32,000 bases of DNA from Promethearchaeota archaeon (GCA_048938295.1 JBHLMI010000022.1:1-32000); one strand, 5' to 3'. Positions 4,521 through 13,493 are shown, counted from the stretch's first letter. Made by a program: numbers and translations. Notes: generated from the sequence alone by a model not told the origin.

Positions 4521-5035
4521 TTGATCCATTCTTCTTACCAGATCTTGGAGTGCTTATAATCGGAGTGCTAACGGTTGGTGCGGCGATTGCAGCAGTCGAA
4601 TCCAGAGAAATCGTGTATGGAGCCATTTCATTAGCAGGAATGATCCTAGGGATTGCAGGACTTTACATCTTATTGGATGCAACTTATGCCGCAATGTTCC
4701 AGATCTCTGTGTATATAGGTGCAGTGGTAGTTCTCATTTTCTTTACTATCATGGTCGTCCCATATGAAGTTTGGAGGCACCGACTCAAACGACCATGGCG
4801 TGAATGGCTGATTCCACTAATTATCAATGGTTTTCTTCTCGGTGTGCTTCTCTACATCTTTAACACACCTGCCATTGTCTCAGCCCTTCCTGATCCAGCC
4901 TTCAGTTGGAATATGGCAGACCTAACAGTAGTCCTTCTACAGGATTATGGTGTGGTTCTACTAGTTCTCGGACTCGTACTCGTCTCAGCACTCCTAGGAG
5001 CACTAACTCTAACCAAAAAGGAGAACGAATCCTAA
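4517..5035 (+). CDS. nuoJ: NADH-quinone oxidoreductase subunit J
   Basis: Five hydrophobic segments, QISVYIGAVVVLIFF motif and canonical position between nuoI and nuoK. Confidence 0.9.
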   Translation: MIDPFFLPDLGVLIIGVLTVGAAIAAVESREIVYGAISLAGMILGIAGLYILLDATYAAMFQISVYIGAVVVLIFFTIMVVPYEVWRHRLKRPWREWLIPLIINGFLLGVLLYIFNTPAIVSALPDPAFSWNMADLTVVLLQDYGVVLLVLGLVLVSALLGALTLTKKENES

Positions 5036-5355
5036 TGGCATCACTTTTCGTGTATCTGATAATCGTTGCGGCTCTCGTTGTTATTGGACTCTATGGACTG
5101 ACAAGTAAACGGAATGTCATGCGGTTATTCTTCAGTATTGAAATACTCATGAATGGGGCGAACTTGAGTATCGTTGTATTTGCTCGATACATCCTCTGGG
5201 GAACCGCAGCACTCGCAATTAATGGGCAAGCCATCGTACTTTTCGCAATTTCCCTTGAGGCAGCTGAAGCCGTCGTCGCGCTTGCCATTATTCTACTAGT
5301 TTCACGTGTGCGTGGTTCAGTGGACATCCATGAACTACGTGACTTGGAGGGTTAA
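5035..5355 (+). CDS. nuoK: NADH-quinone oxidoreductase subunit K
   Basis: KRNVMRLFFSIEILMNGANL and AAEAVVALA motifs, 106 aa. Start ATG overlaps the nuoJ stop. Confidence 0.93.
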   Translation: MASLFVYLIIVAALVVIGLYGLTSKRNVMRLFFSIEILMNGANLSIVVFARYILWGTAALAINGQAIVLFAISLEAAEAVVALAIILLVSRVRGSVDIHELRDLEG

Positions 5356-5360
5356 CAGCG

Positions 5361-6893
5361 ATGCAGACACTATTCGACTCGGTCATATTATTCCTGCAAA
5401 TGTATCCACTAACTCTTGGTGTATTCATTCCAATTCTCTTTACTGGGTTAATCCTCTTCTTCGCCCGTCACAGAGAACGACTAGCAATCTGCTTAAGCGT
5501 TCTGGCGATTTTCCTTTCTACTACCCTGGTTTTTTTCCGAGGATTTGATTTATTTCCATTCTCAGCTACCTCACCCGCTTATGTTGCGGAGACAGTTCTC
5601 TGGATTCCTACCCTTAATATCAGCCTCAGTTTCATGCTCGATGGTCTCAATTTCCCCATCGTTCTTATCACAGCAATTGTAACCACACTAATACTTCTCT
5701 TTACTAGACATTACTTCGAAGATGAGAAGAATAGTGGAACCTACATCGCAACCATCATCGTGATGTACAGTGGAATGCTAGGCGTATTTGTTGCTGCAGA
5801 TCTTTTCTTATTCTATCTTTTTTGGGAAATCACAATAATCCCTGCATATGCATTGGTCATCTATTGGCGAGAAGCGGGAGTATCTAAGGAAGACGCTCGA
5901 AGAACCGGTTTGAAGTTCTTCCTTTGGACCCATGTCGGGTCACTTGTCATGCTCATGGGCTTAATCCTCGTTTTCATCCTAACTGGTACAACGAATATGG
6001 TTGATATTCCTATAGCGCTAACAACAGTACCTATAACAAACATCCACATAATGCAATTTGCTGCAGCCGCGCTGATTTTTGGGTTCATCGTCAAACTTGG
6101 TATCTTCCCTGTCCATAGTTGGCTCCCCGACACATACGTCCAAGTGTCCTCACCTGCTACAGCCATGTTTGGTGGACTTCTTGCCAACATTGGGGCTTAT
6201 GGTCTAATTCGTATTGCCACAAGCTGGTTTCCATTCATTATAGCCGCTTGGTCACTTCCACTAGGATTGATAGCGGTAGTCTCAATCATCTATGGTGGTT
6301 ATATCGCGTTAGGCCAAGGAGAGTTCAAGCGACGATGGGCATATTCGAGTGTGAGCCAAGGTGGATACATTCTCCTTGGAGTCGCCTCAGTGACATCCCT
6401 TGGAGTAGCTGGTGCAACTTTTCACATAATCAATTCCGCAATCATTAAATCAGCACTATTTCTCACTGCTGGCGCTTATCTCATGGTTCTGAAAACCACT
6501 GATATTGAGTCCCTTCGAGGCATGGGCACAAAGATGCCGATAACTGGTATTGCCTTCCTACTTATGGCCTTGGCAATGGCAGGAATTCCTCCCTTAAGCG
6601 GATTCATTAGCGAAGTCCTCATCTTCTTGGGGATTTTCACAATTTCAAGTGCCATTATTATTGCTCTAATTGGTGCAGCCGCGATTCTGGTGACTTTTGT
6701 ATATGTACTTGGTCCCATCTACAAACTTTTCGTGGCGCCCCCCAAGACCGAACAACCCCAATTCAACGATCCGAGTTTATGGCAAACGATTCCATTCATC
6801 CTCTTGACAATCTTTGTGTTTATTCTTGGGATTTGGCCTAATCTGGTGTTGACACCGATTGGACATTGGCTACAGAGCATGGGAGGACTCTAA
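5361..6893 (+). CDS. Extra antiporter-like subunit 1 (NuoM/MrpD-like, 510 aa)
   Basis: FWEIT (TM5 Glu), VKLGIFPVHSWLPD (TM7 Lys), YSSVSQGGY and GIPPLSGFISE (TM12 Glu, M-type). The TM8 Lys position is Asn. Confidence 0.88.
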   Translation: MQTLFDSVILFLQMYPLTLGVFIPILFTGLILFFARHRERLAICLSVLAIFLSTTLVFFRGFDLFPFSATSPAYVAETVLWIPTLNISLSFMLDGLNFPIVLITAIVTTLILLFTRHYFEDEKNSGTYIATIIVMYSGMLGVFVAADLFLFYLFWEITIIPAYALVIYWREAGVSKEDARRTGLKFFLWTHVGSLVMLMGLILVFILTGTTNMVDIPIALTTVPITNIHIMQFAAAALIFGFIVKLGIFPVHSWLPDTYVQVSSPATAMFGGLLANIGAYGLIRIATSWFPFIIAAWSLPLGLIAVVSIIYGGYIALGQGEFKRRWAYSSVSQGGYILLGVASVTSLGVAGATFHIINSAIIKSALFLTAGAYLMVLKTTDIESLRGMGTKMPITGIAFLLMALAMAGIPPLSGFISEVLIFLGIFTISSAIIIALIGAAAILVTFVYVLGPIYKLFVAPPKTEQPQFNDPSLWQTIPFILLTIFVFILGIWPNLVLTPIGHWLQSMGGL

Positions 6894-6895
6894 CA

Positions 6896-8521
6896 ATGCT
6901 TCCCGGAATTGCTCTTCCATTCCCATTCCTGCTTCTATCACTTCTCATTCCAGTCATTGCAGGGATTCTTATCCTACTTTCCCTTTTAGTAGGAAAACCC
7001 CTTGGACGAAAAGGTTCCGGAATCATTGCGTCGATTGCCCTGGCAATTTCATTCACCACTCTACTGTATGTTCTTAGTATTGTACTCACTTTAGGACAAC
7101 CAGTCTACGAAGAGCATTATTGGTTCTCAATAGGAACAGTGGTCGTCGAATTTTCACTCCTCGCGGATTTCCTTAGCCTTCCCCTTTCATTGGCAATTGT
7201 TGGGTTGTGTACTGCATCAGCAGTATACAGCATCGAATACATCAAAGATAAACACGATTTTGCCATGTACTATGTTCTGTTACTCCTCTTTGCAGTCGGC
7301 ATGCTAGGAGTGACCATGGCAACGAACCTTCTTGTATTTTTCATCTTCTTTGAAGGTATGAACGTTCCCGCTTACTTCCTTGTCTCCAACTGGGGCACGA
7401 AGAAGGCCAAGATCATCGGCGTGAAATATATCCTCTATGTTTTCATCGGTGCTATTTGTATTCTTGCTGCAATTTTTTGGGTCTTCGGTATCACTAGTGC
7501 TTTGGGTACTCCGACACTAAATATCTATGAGGTCCCAGCACTACTTAGTCCACTTGCTTCAACGAGTCTACTCATCATGCAAAGCCTTGCCCTCCTCTTC
7601 TCCATCGGATTTTTTGTGAAAATGGCAATATTTCCACTTCATTCCTGGCTTCCTGACTTTCATGGAGAAGCCCCAGTGCCGATTCATGCATTATTGAGCG
7701 CTGTCATGATTAAGACAGGGGCTTACGGCTTCATCCGCATTACCTACTTCTTCTTCCCGCTTGTCGTATTACAAGCTTCAATTCTCCTAGCTGTTCTTGC
7801 CATTATCACGATGATTTGGGGAGCAGGTATGGCCCTGGTTCAAACGGATTACAAACGTGTACTCGCTTATAGCTCAGTCAATCAGATCGGTTATATCCTT
7901 CTGGGCTTCAGTACAATGAACATTTTCGGAATCACGGGAGCCCTCTTTCACATCTTAACTCATGGTCTGTCGAAAGGCGTCTTACTCTATACTGCAGGCT
8001 CCGTCGTTCATTCTGCAGGAACGAAACTCATCAACAAGATGGGAGGTTTAGCTTCGAAGATGCCTCTGACAGCAACTCTGAGCACCATAGGCGCATTAGC
8101 TATCGCAGGAACGCCACCACTTGCCACATTTGTCAGTGAGGCCTTCATCTTCATCGGGGTCTTCACCGTAGGTGTCAACTATCCGATTTTTACTGTCATA
8201 GGAGTAATTGGCATCATTTCCACAGCGCTTACTGCAGCGTATTATTTATGGACCGTGCGTCGGATGTTCCTCGGTCCACCATCCACGGAAATGGACAAAA
8301 CATACGAAGAATATCTCGCTGGCAGATACATTTCACCAGAGGGAATTCCACGTCGATTTGAGGAGGCCCATGAATCACCGCCGTTGATGACCATTCCGAT
8401 GCTGATTGTCGCGTTACTCATTATCCTCTTTGGTGTGTTTGCAGCCCTTATTCTCCCAATCATTTATCCCGCAGCTGAAGCGGCCATTGCAATTCTAACA
8501 GCTGCGATAGGAGGACTCTGA
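6896..8521 (+). CDS. Extra antiporter-like subunit 2 (NuoM/MrpD-like, 541 aa)
   Basis: FFEGM, VKMAIFPLHSWLPD, MIKTGAYG, YSSVNQIGY and GTPPLATFVSE. ATG 6896 follows SD GGAGG at 6882-6886. Confidence 0.88.
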   Translation: MLPGIALPFPFLLLSLLIPVIAGILILLSLLVGKPLGRKGSGIIASIALAISFTTLLYVLSIVLTLGQPVYEEHYWFSIGTVVVEFSLLADFLSLPLSLAIVGLCTASAVYSIEYIKDKHDFAMYYVLLLLFAVGMLGVTMATNLLVFFIFFEGMNVPAYFLVSNWGTKKAKIIGVKYILYVFIGAICILAAIFWVFGITSALGTPTLNIYEVPALLSPLASTSLLIMQSLALLFSIGFFVKMAIFPLHSWLPDFHGEAPVPIHALLSAVMIKTGAYGFIRITYFFFPLVVLQASILLAVLAIITMIWGAGMALVQTDYKRVLAYSSVNQIGYILLGFSTMNIFGITGALFHILTHGLSKGVLLYTAGSVVHSAGTKLINKMGGLASKMPLTATLSTIGALAIAGTPPLATFVSEAFIFIGVFTVGVNYPIFTVIGVIGIISTALTAAYYLWTVRRMFLGPPSTEMDKTYEEYLAGRYISPEGIPRRFEEAHESPPLMTIPMLIVALLIILFGVFAALILPIIYPAAEAAIAILTAAIGGL

Positions 8522-8522
8522 T

Positions 8523-10556
8523 ATGTTTCCGTTTGCACAATGGCTTACATGGATCCTCCCAATACTGGGTGCGATTCTTATTGCTTTAATTGGATGGCTT
8601 GACAAGCGAATATCAAAATACATTGCAGTCATAGTTGGTGCAATCGCGGGTATATTCGCTATTTCCATGATTCCAGATATTCTCGCCCTACCCTCGCTGG
8701 GATTACCTTATCTTGAGTCCAATATACCATGGGTTGTCCTTCCAGGAGTTGCAATTTATGTTGGCGTTTTGCTGGATCCACTCAGCGTCTTTATGGCGAA
8801 CATAGCCGTCTTAATCGGCTTCTTAATCATCGTCTATTCTATGAGCTATATGGGTGAAGATAAGAGCCAAACCCGATATTATGCTCTGATTTTACTTTTT
8901 ATCGGCGCTATGGCAGGGTTAGTTCTTGCCAACAACTTTCTCCAGCTATTCATCTTCTGGGAAGTTGTAGGCGTCTGCTCTTATGCCTTGATTGGGTTCT
9001 GGTATGAGAAACCCGAAGCCGCAAGGGCAGGAATGAAAGCTTTTGTTGTTACTCGAGTGGGGGACGTGTTTCTCTTAATTGGAATCGTCTTCCTCTTTAC
9101 ACAAGTAGGATCATTCAACTACATTGTTATTCAAGACGCTGTGGAACTTGGATTGATTAGCCTATCTGCTCTTACCATGACCTCTCTTTTCACCTTTGGA
9201 GGGGCTATGGGTAAGTCGGCTCAGGTCCCCTTCCATGTCTGGCTTCCAGATGCTATGCAGGGTCCAACCCCAGTTAGTGCCCTCATTCACGCAGCAACAA
9301 TGGTGAAAGCAGGAATCTACCTGGTTGGTCGAACTTTCTTCCTTTTCGGTTCTGTCACGCTATGGCTTAACACGGTCATAATAGTTGGCGCAATCACCAC
9401 TATTCTGGCAGCTACTATTGCCTTAGTTTCAACAGATCTAAAGGCTGTTCTCGCATATTCGACCATAAGTCAACTCGGCCTCATCATGGCGGCACTAGGT
9501 GTTGGTACAACTCTTGGTTGGTTTGCAGGGCAAGCACATGTAATGAGCCATGCCATTTTCAAAGCTCTGCTTTTCCTTTGTGCTGGCTCTGTTTTACATG
9601 CAGTAATGACTAATGACATCAACCAGATGGGTGGTCTTCGCCGGAAAATGCCTATCACTTTTGCAGCTAGTTTAATTGGCGTTCTAGCACTCGCGGGTAT
9701 TTTCCCATTTAATGGATTCTGGAGTAAAGACCTCATTTTTGCAGCAACATTACAATCAGGTGCACTCATATCTCTAATTCTTCTTTGGGTTGCTTCTGTA
9801 TTCACGGTTGCCTATAGTTTTCGCTGGATCATCTTGATTTTCATGGGTAACCCACGTAATGAAGAAATTGGTACTCATGTTCATGAAAGTCCTAAGTTAC
9901 TCACCGTTCCACTCATGATCTTAGCTGTTGGAGTCGTTTTTTCTGCGTTTCTAATTCCCACTGGATTACTTGCTACATACTTCGATGCTCATATCCATTT
10001 CGAAATTGAATTAATTCCACTCTTACTTTCTCTGTCCACCCTTGTAATCGGTGGTATACCCGCTATTCTAATCTATAAGTACCGAAAACCCGCACCGGAA
10101 TTCTTTAGTCAGAATCGCATCACTCGTGCACTTCAAACCATATTGAGCAACGGCTACTACTTCGATAAGATTTATGACTGGATATTTGTTCGCGGCACTC
10201 TGCGTATCTTCAACTTCATTCTTTCACGCGTTGAACTTGGGACTATCGACCGATTCCACTACATCTTTGCTCCTAAAGTTGAAGCGGGAAGCCGAATCCT
10301 AGATCAGGTGGTCGAGTCACGAGGATCAAAAGGAGCGAATTACAAGTTTGCACAATTTATGGTGAAAACCTCGATCGCCAGCAACTACGTTGATGCAAAC
10401 ATAGTTGATGGAGCAGTAAACGGTATTGCCAAAGCAGGAGAGAAGGCTTCTAGAAGCCTACGCCGGGTGCAAACAGGCATTACTATGAATTATGTCCTGG
10501 CTTTTGTGGTTGGTATAATTCTACTGATACTCTTTCTTGTGACGTTGGTAGGGTGA
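8523..10556 (+). CDS. nuoL: NADH-quinone oxidoreductase subunit L with an extended lateral helix
   Basis: FWEVVG, GKSAQVPFHVWLPDAMQGPTPVSALIHAATMV, HAIFKALLF and GFWSKD. C-terminal YYFD...QTG helix followed by the final TM. Confidence 0.96.
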   Translation: MFPFAQWLTWILPILGAILIALIGWLDKRISKYIAVIVGAIAGIFAISMIPDILALPSLGLPYLESNIPWVVLPGVAIYVGVLLDPLSVFMANIAVLIGFLIIVYSMSYMGEDKSQTRYYALILLFIGAMAGLVLANNFLQLFIFWEVVGVCSYALIGFWYEKPEAARAGMKAFVVTRVGDVFLLIGIVFLFTQVGSFNYIVIQDAVELGLISLSALTMTSLFTFGGAMGKSAQVPFHVWLPDAMQGPTPVSALIHAATMVKAGIYLVGRTFFLFGSVTLWLNTVIIVGAITTILAATIALVSTDLKAVLAYSTISQLGLIMAALGVGTTLGWFAGQAHVMSHAIFKALLFLCAGSVLHAVMTNDINQMGGLRRKMPITFAASLIGVLALAGIFPFNGFWSKDLIFAATLQSGALISLILLWVASVFTVAYSFRWIILIFMGNPRNEEIGTHVHESPKLLTVPLMILAVGVVFSAFLIPTGLLATYFDAHIHFEIELIPLLLSLSTLVIGGIPAILIYKYRKPAPEFFSQNRITRALQTILSNGYYFDKIYDWIFVRGTLRIFNFILSRVELGTIDRFHYIFAPKVEAGSRILDQVVESRGSKGANYKFAQFMVKTSIASNYVDANIVDGAVNGIAKAGEKASRSLRRVQTGITMNYVLAFVVGIILLILFLVTLVG

Positions 10557-10562
10557 GTCAAG

Positions 10563-12023
10563 ATGGTTCTATGGGAAAATGCATTACTCATATTGATCGG
10601 TGGAGCACTCCTCGGCTCCCTCATCACGTACTTGCTTGGACGGTTCGGTTCAATGATTGTCAAAGGCTTTGCTGTAGCCTGGACAACCTTATTGTTCCTC
10701 TTCACAGGATTATTATGGCTAGGATTCAACCCAAGCACACCAGGATTCTCCTACCTAATTGATATTCCTTGGATACCAGCCCTTGGAATTACTTTCAAAC
10801 TTGGTGTTGACGGAATCAGTTTTCCACTTTTACTAGCAACAACACTTCTTACCCTAGCCGCGGCGATTGGGTCCATGACGCTAATCAAAGAACACGTAGC
10901 CATATACTACGGTACCCTCTTGCTATTAGAGGCGGCCCTCATGGGAGTTTTTATTTCACTAAACCTTCTAGTCTTCTTCATCTTTTGGGAACTCGTGCTA
11001 ATCCCCATGTTCATCTTAATCGGTGTATGGGGCGGTGCAAACCGCCGTTATGCCGCAATGAAATTCCTCATCTTTACCCATGTCGGCAGCATCCTGATGC
11101 TTTTAGGATTCATTATGCTCTTCCTCTTTGCAGGCACCTGGGATTTGACTTACTTCCTCACATCACCCATCCCCTTTGCCGTTGCACTGCCGATAATGAT
11201 CATTACCTTCATTGGATTTGCCGTGAAGTTACCCATCGTTCCCCTTCACACCTGGCTCCCAGATGCACACGTAGAAGCCCCTGCACCTATCAGCATTATT
11301 CTTGCTGGTGTCCTACTAAAAATGGGAGGATACGGCTTCATTCGAATTTCAATCGGCGTATTTCCACAGATTGCAGCTTTACTTGCTCCAGCCATCATGG
11401 GCTTTGGTATCATCACCATCTTCTATGGAGCCCTCGTCGCATTGAACCAACGGGATATGAAACGCATGATTGCTTTGACCAGTATCAACCATATGGGACT
11501 AGTCTTACTCGGAGCATTTACCTTAACAACAATTGGAGTGGCTGGAGCCGTTTTAATGATGTTCAATCATGCATGTGCAATTGGATTGATGTTTTTACTC
11601 ACTGGTGTTATCCAGAAACGTGCTGGAACCCGAAACATCGATGAACTTTCTGGCATGGGCAAATTGATGCCATGGACAGCTCTGTTCTTTGTCTTAGGCT
11701 CACTCGCGTCAATGGGAATACCACTCTTCGCACCGTTTGTCAGCGAATTCATGATCTTTACTGGAACACTTTCAATTCTGCCCATTCTAGTTTTTGTGAT
11801 CCTCGCCCCTGGAATTGTCGTTGCCTACTTCCTATGGACGATTGATCGAATAATTATTTCAGATCCCCATCCCGGAACCCGCATGCGACGAGCCCGCCTT
11901 AGCGAACTTATCGCGCTATTATTACTTCTACTTCCCATCATTCTCCTTGGACTCTTACCAGCTATGATGGTTGACCGAATAGTACCTGCTGTACAGCTCT
12001 TATTAAGTGGTGGAGGTTCGTAA
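10563..12023 (+). CDS. nuoM: NADH-quinone oxidoreductase subunit M
   Basis: FWELVLIPMF, VKLPIVPLHTWLPDAHVEAP, LLKMGGYG and FVSEF; canonical position between nuoL and nuoN. Confidence 0.95.
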   Translation: MVLWENALLILIGGALLGSLITYLLGRFGSMIVKGFAVAWTTLLFLFTGLLWLGFNPSTPGFSYLIDIPWIPALGITFKLGVDGISFPLLLATTLLTLAAAIGSMTLIKEHVAIYYGTLLLLEAALMGVFISLNLLVFFIFWELVLIPMFILIGVWGGANRRYAAMKFLIFTHVGSILMLLGFIMLFLFAGTWDLTYFLTSPIPFAVALPIMIITFIGFAVKLPIVPLHTWLPDAHVEAPAPISIILAGVLLKMGGYGFIRISIGVFPQIAALLAPAIMGFGIITIFYGALVALNQRDMKRMIALTSINHMGLVLLGAFTLTTIGVAGAVLMMFNHACAIGLMFLLTGVIQKRAGTRNIDELSGMGKLMPWTALFFVLGSLASMGIPLFAPFVSEFMIFTGTLSILPILVFVILAPGIVVAYFLWTIDRIIISDPHPGTRMRRARLSELIALLLLLLPIILLGLLPAMMVDRIVPAVQLLLSGGGS

Positions 12024-13493
12024 ATGCAACTTGCTGAATTGGTCACCTTGTTCAATACTCTACTCGCAAGCCCCTTCTTCCCCTTCATCGTATTTGCCAT
12101 TCTCGGATTGCTTACGCCTGTTATTAATCGGATCTTTCGAGGGAAAGTTACGGCTTACTGGCCTTTAGTCAGCCTAGGTATATTTGCCATACTGGTATTG
12201 CCAAGATGGGCAACTGTGCTTACTTCCCCCATTATGACCCCAAGCCTCCTCTTTGATAGTATTAGCCTTTTCTTTGTTACCCTGTTTATCGTTGTTGGTT
12301 TTGCTGTAACCATTGCTTCAATAGATTACTTCAGAGAAAATCACAATCAAGAAATATACTACACTTTGCTGCAATTGGCACTTCTTGGCATGATGCTAAT
12401 TTCTATGGCTGTTGACTTAATTGTCATGTTTGCCGGATGGATTCTGGTCGCCGTTACCAGCTACACCCTTGTTGTGATTCGTAAAGAGGATGCTAAGGGT
12501 GTGGAGGCAGGTGTTAAATACTTCATAATGGGTGCAGCATCCTCCTCCATTCTCTTTCTCGGCATCTCAATAACATACGGACTCACTGGAAGCACCCAAC
12601 TAGCAGAAATTTCTACAGCCTGGGCTGCACTCGATCCGAACCTTATTCCTCTCGCATTACTAGGCGTAATGCTGATTCTTGTAGGATTTGGATTCAAAAT
12701 GGGCATTACCCCGTTTCACATGTGGTTACCTGACACTTACGAAGGGGCCCCACAGCCAGTTTCCGCATTTCTCGGCGGAGGCTCAAACAAAGCTGCATTC
12801 GCTGCTGCTATCCGTGTCTTCATTTTGGGATTTTTAGTTTTCCGCTTCCAATGGACCGCTGCCTTTGCATTTCTAGCCCTAATAACTATGACGTGGGGAA
12901 ACATTGCAGCACTCTCCCAGAAAACCCTTCCAAGATTGCTTGCATACTCAGCTATTGCTCAAGCAGGATACACAATCATCGGTCTAGCTGCTCCAACGGT
13001 CTTAGGATTATCTGGTTTTATGTTTCACGCATTGAATGACGGGGTAGCCAAGACAGGAGCGTTCATTGCAGCAGCAGCCGTTGCATTTACTCTTTCGAAA
13101 ACCAAGCTTTCGGATTACAAAGGCCTGGGCAAGCGAATGCCAATCACTGCGTTCAGCCTAGCGATTCTATTATTAGCCCTAGCCGGTATTCCTCCGCTAA
13201 GTGGTTTCTTCAGCAAACTGATCCTGTTTACAGCTGCCGTTGAAGTTGGATTAATCTGGTTAGCTCTTGCGGGAGTCCTAAACAGTGCATTTTCCCTTGC
13301 ATATTATGGATGGATAATCAAACGAATGTATATGGATGAACCTGATGAATCAGATGCTGATCAAACAGTTAGAGAATCGCGTAAATTCCAATTCGCACTT
13401 GTTGCACTCGCTGCTGCCACAATCCTCATTGGACTATTTAGCGGTATAATTATCGGATACATCGAAACCATGGTAATTGGATTCTACCCCTAA
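12024..13493 (+). CDS. nuoN: NADH-quinone oxidoreductase subunit N
   Basis: EAGVKYFIMGA, FKMGITPFHMWLPDTYEGAP, RLLAYSAIAQAGY and AGIPPLSGFFSK (TM12 Lys). Confidence 0.94.
   Translation: MQLAELVTLFNTLLASPFFPFIVFAILGLLTPVINRIFRGKVTAYWPLVSLGIFAILVLPRWATVLTSPIMTPSLLFDSISLFFVTLFIVVGFAVTIASIDYFRENHNQEIYYTLLQLALLGMMLISMAVDLIVMFAGWILVAVTSYTLVVIRKEDAKGVEAGVKYFIMGAASSSILFLGISITYGLTGSTQLAEISTAWAALDPNLIPLALLGVMLILVGFGFKMGITPFHMWLPDTYEGAPQPVSAFLGGGSNKAAFAAAIRVFILGFLVFRFQWTAAFAFLALITMTWGNIAALSQKTLPRLLAYSAIAQAGYTIIGLAAPTVLGLSGFMFHALNDGVAKTGAFIAAAAVAFTLSKTKLSDYKGLGKRMPITAFSLAILLLALAGIPPLSGFFSKLILFTAAVEVGLIWLALAGVLNSAFSLAYYGWIIKRMYMDEPDESDADQTVRESRKFQFALVALAAATILIGLFSGIIIGYIETMVIGFYP

Follow-up and report, generated by a model that had tools for sequence, protein, structure and literature searches.

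The lateral, or transverse, helix HL of NuoL, the distal antiporter-like subunit of complex I, runs from transmembrane helix 15 (TM15) back along the neighbouring antiporter modules to the anchor helix TM16. It is still debated how a single redox reaction in complex I is coupled to several distant pumps, and what part HL plays in this coupling. Here we describe a nuoL gene with a lengthened HL, found in a stretch of 32,000 nucleotides from a Promethearchaeota archaeon (GCA_048938295.1, JBHLMI010000022.1:1-32000), referred to below as the window, where it lies in a complex-I-type operon together with two extra NuoM-like antiporter genes, Mx1 and Mx2. Two described systems come closest to it. 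The 2M-type complex I of Nitrospira and others carries an extra NuoM-like subunit and an insertion of about 26 residues in HL, which was proposed to let the helix span the extra module (Chadwick et al. 2018, as related in PMC9040806). Complex_I_3 of Candidatus Manganitrophaceae combines five ion-pumping subunits, encoded in one cluster, with an extended HL, a layout called unique; two MrpD-like subunits replace NuoL, of which MrpD2 bears a single 26-residue insert, and the enzyme was proposed to run in reverse, reducing a low-potential acceptor (PMC9040806). In the window, HL is that of a genuine NuoL, and it is best explained as lengthened from one unit of about 26-27 residues to three, a gain of 53-54 residues, or about 80 Å if helical at 1.5 Å per residue.

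With the 2M type, as far as PMC9040806 describes it, the window shares an extra NuoM-like gene in the nuo cluster and an HL insertion at the same position. It differs in the number of extra M-like genes, which is two, in its double insertion (two units, 53-54 residues) in place of a single one of about 26, in its gene order (K-Mx1-Mx2-L-M-N against K-L-M-M-N), in the different origins of its extra genes, in its host, an archaeon labelled as Asgard, and in its set of 11 core subunits without NuoEFG. The Nitrospira loci in our survey (L224, L230-232, L237) are arranged L-M-M-N and have a TM15-to-TM16 span of 75 residues, the span being the distance between two hidden Markov model (HMM) anchors, measured in 252 distinct NuoL sequences from 280-odd loci. 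Archaeal K-Mx-L-M-N clusters, found in metagenome-assembled genomes labelled Thaumarchaeota (L109-L112) and at about 40 metagenome loci, likewise place an extra M gene before nuoL, and the window M and N find their nearest relatives among theirs; however, these clusters have one extra gene, one extra unit and a span of 76. Nested inside this clade is a NuoL of the window genus that we label class B (class A being the window type), yet it has two extra units. Complex_I_3 and the window are alike in having five pump subunits per cluster and an HL extension, but the window has its genuine NuoL with a double insert beside three M-type subunits, and its Mx1 and Mx2 score best as NuoM, not MrpD. Ordinary NuoL, ND5 and NdhF (4he8_L, 3rko_L, 8e9g_L, 6hum_F) share with the window protein the fold (Z about 50-54), the YYFD-type anchor, the VDxxxVDGxVNG...QTG unit and TM16, whereas their span is 49-51 residues against 103. 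Our literature search, which took in Chadwick et al. 2018 through PMC9040806, found no description of a NuoL-based layout with three M subunits and five antiporters, or of a double HL insert. Because the layout of Complex_I_3 was called unique, that of the window would be a second, different five-pump design; these archaeal clusters would thus offer a five-module design on a true NuoL, beyond the four-module 2M enzymes and the five-pump enzyme of Manganitrophus.

The identity of the window NuoL is supported by domain and family searches and by a structural model. Pfam detects PF00361 (265.9 bits), PF00662 (45.4 bits) and PF06455, and the NuoL models NF005141 and TIGR01974 are passed with 574.5 bits (cut-off 556) and 551.8 bits (cut-off 407.5). 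An AlphaFold2 (AF2) model superposes on 8e9g_L with Z 53.9 and a root mean square deviation of 2.2 Å over 577 residues. In an alignment of the five window antiporters, the L-type charged residues are complete (TM5 Glu, TM7 Lys, TM8 Lys and TM12 Lys), and the C-terminus has the NuoL architecture of a transverse helix followed by a single anchor, TM16.

A preliminary description of this DNA, made from the sequence alone, had proposed that HL carries an insertion of about 53-54 residues made of two units, and its measurements proved accurate throughout. The YYFD motif starts at residue 545, with D548 at position 10164 and Q650 at 10470, giving the claimed 103 residues when both ends are counted. 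The unit heads VE, VE and VD lie at 10230 (V570), 10311 (V597, +27) and 10389 (V623, +26), and HYIFA (residue 579) and NYKFA (606) are 27 residues apart. The values it gave for other proteins, about 48-49 residues in ordinary NuoL and a single insertion of about 26 residues in 2M types, agree with the measured spans of 49-51 and 74-79 (75 in the Nitrospira L-M-M-N loci). Alignment with phmmer to solved NuoL and NdhF structures stops at about residues 558-567 and restarts at 621-624, so that residues of about 568-622 are unaligned. The implied insertion is 55 residues against 6hum_F, 53 against 8qby_L and 54 against 8e9g_L, which places it at 53-55 overall.

Across the survey, spans are discrete rather than continuous: 23 residues in one sequence, 49-51 in 93, 74-79 in 134, 98-103 in 22, and 110 and 153 in one each; an exhaustive profile search among 1.84 billion representative proteins brought two further spans, 133 and 161. 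The length is strictly kept in the relatives of the window protein. It is exactly 103 residues in class A, in class B and in g18, the genus Candidatus Borrarchaeum. HL of locus L118 aligns without gaps, and the spans of L119 and L127 are each one residue shorter (102). Identities in HL among all these sequences are only 20-45%.

Both ends of this size range include proteins of separate interest. Some NuoL-like proteins (P0065, P0077, P0079, P0158; GYYFDxFYN...QTG) are one unit short of the canonical helix, with a span of only 23, and at the locus of one of them (L206, P0077) nuoK is followed by a nuoL of 600 codons and then by at least one further antiporter gene. At the other end, some bacterial NuoL fragments (P0096/L125, P0034, P0089, P0104) have four or five tandem HL units and spans of 133, 153 and 161; in P0034 the repeats are nearly identical to one another, and at L125 nuoL is followed directly by an F-type ATP synthase operon.

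For 161 clusters whose L sequences are distinct and whose flanks are complete, we compared helix length with the count of antiporter genes in cis. These loci were picked by likeness to the window NuoL or to a five-unit NuoL, and relatives among them are not independent; lineage-level counts were also made at 60% identity. The contigs of P0078, P0131, P0090, P0133, P0150, P0096 and P0077 were too short to be counted, and G041 and G042 too fragmented. The 77 clusters without an extra unit have one, two or three antiporter genes (15, 12 and 50 clusters), and none has four or more. With one extra unit (75 clusters), one, two, three and four genes occur in 1, 6, 27 and 41 clusters, and five in none. 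With two extra units, two, three, four and five genes are found in 1, 2, 3 and 3 clusters. The number of antiporter genes is therefore at most three plus the number of extra units in 161 of 161 complete clusters, and often lies below that limit. The correlation suggested in the preliminary description thus holds as a one-sided upper bound without exception, and not as a one-to-one count. Helix length therefore limits the number of modules from above but gives no independent tally.

Clusters with five antiporter genes were found in three lineages, all with the double insert. They are the window genus (the window, L081, L082 and L085; genomes G003, G004 and G014), where Mx1 and Mx2 occur together in every complete class A locus; Borrarchaeum (g18), with the order Mx1-Mx2-L738-M-N in genome G318, and with the cluster divided between two contig ends in G319; and a metagenome contig (L119) with the order A-H-JK-Mx-Mx-L657-M-N. 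Borrarchaeum provides a natural comparison, as it also has an ordinary L676-M-N cluster. Its two L proteins are 80% identical over residues 1-638 (75% within one genome), whereas identity between the clusters falls to 32-43% for M, N and Mx. The ordinary cluster has a span of 50 and the five-gene cluster one of 103. In these near-isogenic L cores, helix length thus follows the number of antiporter genes, three or five, and such short- and long-helix paralogs within one genus are a natural target for cryo-electron microscopy and for measurements of protons moved per electron. The Borrarchaeum five-gene-cluster Mx1 is intact in G319 (495 aa) and lies in two frames in G318 (L285:7073-8562; 149 + 347 aa, with one TAA within the match), which may be a sequencing error or a pseudogene.

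On these grounds we consider it fairly probable that HL serves as a strap that admits only as many modules as its length allows, and that owing to the two added units it spans Mx1 and Mx2 in addition to M and N. The length of HL would set the maximum number of modules between NuoL and the TM16 anchor, the two extra units would correspond to the two extra NuoM-like genes in K-Mx1-Mx2-L-M-N, and the operon would encode a complex-I-like "3M" enzyme whose one arm holds five antiporter modules. The position of Mx1 and Mx2 under the helix, the order of the modules and pumping by each of them are what we infer. A broader proposal joins several parts and, taken as a whole, is put forward tentatively, as somewhat less likely than its negation. 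HL would be a modular, exchangeable ruler of minus one to about plus four units (spans 23, 50, 76, 103, 133, 153) that caps the modules and is moved among nuoL paralogs by recombination; Asgard archaea (the window genus and Borrarchaeum) would use two extra units for five-module 3M enzymes that move about six protons per two electrons, or that use proton-motive force to reduce a low-potential acceptor.

The inserted units may be tandem repeats of the canonical unit, which units 1 and 2 of the window match only marginally. Self-similarity of the window HL peaks at an offset of 27, above the 95th and below the 99th percentile of column shuffles. An HMM built on the canonical unit matches unit 3 strongly (27-42 bits; 38.8 bits in the window), and bacterial single inserts are obvious tandem copies of the canonical FDxxxIDGxVNG unit (17-30 bits). 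All three unit heads, E571, E598 and D624, are unchanged in class A, class B, L118 and L119, relatives with no more than 25-45% identity in this region; within unit 3, D629, N633, Q650 and G652 are invariant as well. The head of unit 1, VELGTIDRFHY, resembles the sole unit of an archaeal ordinary NuoL (IELGGIDRFNY, L115). Judged from the sequence, the three-unit register is real but weak as repetition. The ratio of nonsynonymous to synonymous substitution rates (dN/dS) is 0.14-0.18 in the insert and 0.04-0.07 in the core, and the insert is under purifying selection.

The AF2 model of NuoL, built from an alignment of 83 sequences, has a predicted local distance difference test score (pLDDT) of 88 and a predicted template modelling score of 0.83. 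It places helices at residues 544-599 and 605-650, parted by RGSKG and followed by TM16. Since residues 2-595 of the model superpose on residues 5-600 of mycobacterial NuoL, HL included, the first predicted helix follows the ordinary path of HL and the second is the surplus.

A tree of the L core, made with HL removed, places the double-length helix on three different cores. One is the class A clade, with L118, L122 and L127, all with two extra units. The next is class B, nested in the one-insert archaeal clade (100/100 support), and the last is g18, beside the ordinary L of Borrarchaeum (100/100). The class A, class B and g18 helices are mutually 33-42% identical, and, when its true sisters are taken as the reference, class B is nearer to class A by HL than by the core. 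The simplest reading would be that the C-terminal segment was exchanged between paralogous nuoL genes, which would also account for the surplus length of the helix in class B.

Several observations weigh against a strap that spans five modules, and we gather them here, beginning with gene content. Class B clusters of the window genus (A-B-C-D-H-I-J-K-Mx-L(766 aa)-M-N) have four antiporter genes, and despite this their L has a homologous, gap-free span of 103 residues. No spare M gene was found in G011 and G012, two genomes (88-89% complete) with a class B and an ordinary cluster. An Anaerolineae L-M-N cluster (L042, span 98) and a metagenome J-K-L-M-N cluster with two extra units (L127, span 102) each contain three antiporter genes in cis; in L127, two more antiporter-like genes lie 5 kb downstream in another transcription unit. 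Surplus length is also common among single inserts: one extra unit was counted in 27 clusters with three genes, and bacteria with an extra unit in such clusters include Ignavibacteriota, Zixibacteria, Calditrichota and Planctomycetota, among others. Whole-genome family searches found only three antiporter-family genes in all in a Melioribacteraceae genome with such a NuoL (L036/G045), and only two three-gene antiporter clusters in a Zixibacteria chromosome (L019/G043). The helix itself gives further reasons for caution. Its pLDDT is only 50-69, and residues 601-603 score under 50. Units 1 and 2 of the window match the canonical-unit HMM marginally, in the expected register (independent E 0.03-0.5). 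Unit 3 is strongly amphipathic, unit 1 moderately so and unit 2 hardly at all, the hydrophobic face shifts in phase, and the mean hydrophobic moment of HL is not significantly above that of shuffles (p about 0.11). In an ideal helix, a unit of 27 residues makes 7.5 turns, and so equivalent residues of successive units would point to opposite faces.

These points settle how much of the preliminary description can be kept. It had taken the length of the helix as independent evidence that all five antiporters form one arm, and this is defeated by the equal span of 103 residues with four genes in class B, a case it had itself named as refuting, and by the span of 102 with three in L127; modules cannot be counted from a helix where class B and others carry a surplus. 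Its proposal that the helix was extended twice to clamp two extra subunits fares better. All five-gene lineages, Borrarchaeum among them, have the double insert, although the insert also occurs with fewer genes. Its expectation of a continuous, amphipathic helix was borne out in part: the insert is modelled as helix and not as a loop or domain, with a five-residue break and low confidence, and the amphipathic pattern is that of units 3 and 1 and hardly of unit 2, with a moment not above shuffles. The exceptions do not defeat the lengthening of the helix to admit extra modules. For annotation, the rule that follows is that helix length bounds the number of modules and does not count them, and the exceptions (class B, bacterial three-gene clusters and the fragments with four or five units) raise the question of what a surplus helix does.

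The alternatives differ in what they make of this surplus. The helix may overreach the antiporter row, toward NuoK, J, A and H or as a bulge, with four modules beneath it and Mx1 or Mx2 elsewhere, for example distal to NuoL, or with the two as alternative isoforms. Class B, with its equal helix and four genes, speaks for such an arrangement; extra units are common in three-gene clusters, Mx1 and Mx2 are of different origins and not tandem duplicates, and Mx1 is without the TM8 Lys. Yet every five-gene cluster has two extra units where one would suffice, the Borrarchaeum paralogs tie helix length to gene number, and all complete class A loci contain both Mx1 and Mx2, so that we regard this arrangement as unlikely. 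The double insert could instead be a historical passenger, copied between paralogous nuoL genes and tolerated as harmless, its match with two extra genes being coincidental. Against this stand the length kept at 102-103 with 20-45% identity, the dN/dS of 0.14-0.18, a gene number within the helix limit in all 161 clusters, and the retention of the insert in g18 when its L core was homogenised. Homologous double-length helices on three unrelated L cores, the relative closeness of class B to class A in HL over the core, and helices longer than gene number needs in many clusters speak for it, and with all of this together we hold a mere passenger to be improbable.

A last possibility concerns the shape of the insert, which might fold into a hairpin of helices or a small domain in the cytoplasm and serve another function, for example to dock a partner. 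The predicted break at RGSKG (600-604) speaks for this, with its Gly kept in class A and class B (given as G600, from alignment A1); the low pLDDT of the region (50-69) and the weak amphipathicity of unit 2 point the same way. However, two long helices are predicted, with the five-residue break as the sole turn, the bacterial single inserts are clear tandem copies of the canonical helix unit (17-30 bits), and discrete steps of about 26.5 residues suit a ruler better than a domain. A hairpin or domain is therefore very improbable, and a strap that caps the number of modules is the reading we prefer.

The features of the locus are collected in Table 1.

Table 1. Antiporter genes of the window operon and parts of the NuoL lateral helix (window positions; residues are those of NuoL unless a gene is named).
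Feature	Position	Strand	Description	Evidence
nuoK ORF	4906..5355	+	immediately upstream of Mx1	PF00420 match covers residues 50-148 of the open reading frame (ORF)
Mx1	5361..6893	+	first extra NuoM-like antiporter gene, 510 aa	Pfam, NCBIfam, residue alignment
Mx2	6866..8521	+	second extra NuoM-like antiporter gene, 551 aa	Pfam, NCBIfam, residue alignment
nuoL (P0001)	8523..10556	+	distal antiporter-like subunit with transverse helix HL, 677 aa	Pfam, NCBIfam, AF2
TM15-to-TM16 span	10164..10472	+	D548 to Q650, 103 residues	span measurements
Pre-unit segment	10164..10229	+	D548-R569, common to ordinary NuoL	PDB NuoL chains align up to query ~558-567
Unit 1	10230..10310	+	V570-V596, 27 aa, head VELGTIDRFHY	alignments, coordinate check
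Unit 2	10311..10388	+	V597-Y622, 26 aa, most divergent unit	alignments, canonical-unit HMM, hydrophobic moment
Predicted helix break RGSKG	10320..10334	+	R600-G604	AF2 secondary structure; alignment A1
Unit 3	10389..10478	+	V623-G652, canonical VDxxxVDGxVNG...RRxQTG, upstream of TM16	canonical-unit HMM, PDB alignments
TM16	10482..10550	+	C-terminal anchor helix, residues 654-676	AF2; alignment to TM16 of 6hum_F, 8qby_L, 8e9g_L
nuoM	10563..12023	+	486 aa	TIGR01972, 459 bits
nuoN	12024..13493	+	489 aa	TIGR01770 best family, 329.8 bits, just under cut-off 332.6; NuoN group in tree

In the operon, NuoC, D, H, J, K, L, M and N were identified by Pfam and NCBIfam in one same-strand run, and NuoA, B and I were placed from ORF positions only. 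The real start of nuoK is probably further downstream. The five antiporter genes overlap or lie 1-7 nucleotides apart; Mx2 overlaps Mx1 by 28 nucleotides and ends 1 nucleotide before nuoL. Both Mx1 and Mx2 pass the TIGR01972 (NuoM) cut-off of 263.8, with 325 and 295 bits. Mx2 has the full E/K/K/E set. Mx1 keeps TM5 Glu, TM7 Lys and TM12 Glu, with Asn276 (6186-6188) in place of the TM8 Lys, which is present in Mx2, M, L and N of the window; because of this Asn, five modules need not be five equal pumps. Mx1 and Mx2 were considered as tandem duplicates of each other, which the tree ruled out. Mx2 groups with archaeal ordinary M subunits, and Mx1 is a long branch beside bacterial and 2M-type M subunits. 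The Mx of class B groups with that of clusters labelled thaumarchaeal.

Class B NuoL proteins (L086-L089, L106-L108; 766-769 aa) have about 30 extra C-terminal residues after TM16 (...FEPLLLxxPxVLLVIIVVLVITAIL), which resemble a further, 17th transmembrane helix; neither class A nor ordinary NuoL has them. A metagenome contig (L130:363-4371) has two adjacent nuoL-like genes, of 649 aa with one extra unit and of 673 aa with two, and an M-like gene on the opposite strand.

Further clusters of the window genome are two with three antiporter genes, on contigs C41 and C17, and one of Mbh/Hdr-like type on C5. The second NuoL of the genome, L090 on contig C41, has 651 residues and an aberrant C-terminus without the QTG motif (...YFARDRWAPKVSQEQEEDSVSFPQYIV...); its relatives P0133 and L123 have three VE/FD-type units. 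The Mbh-like locus L282 (contig C5, 35000-43000) encodes a CCG-domain (HdrD-like) protein, a NuoC-like protein, a NiFe-hydrogenase-large/NuoD-like protein, a lone antiporter of 613 aa, a NuoH-like protein and a NuoI-like ferredoxin. This antiporter was considered as a fifth module of class B supplied in trans, and was set aside because it belongs to this separate Mbh/Hdr-like cluster of the group-4-hydrogenase type.

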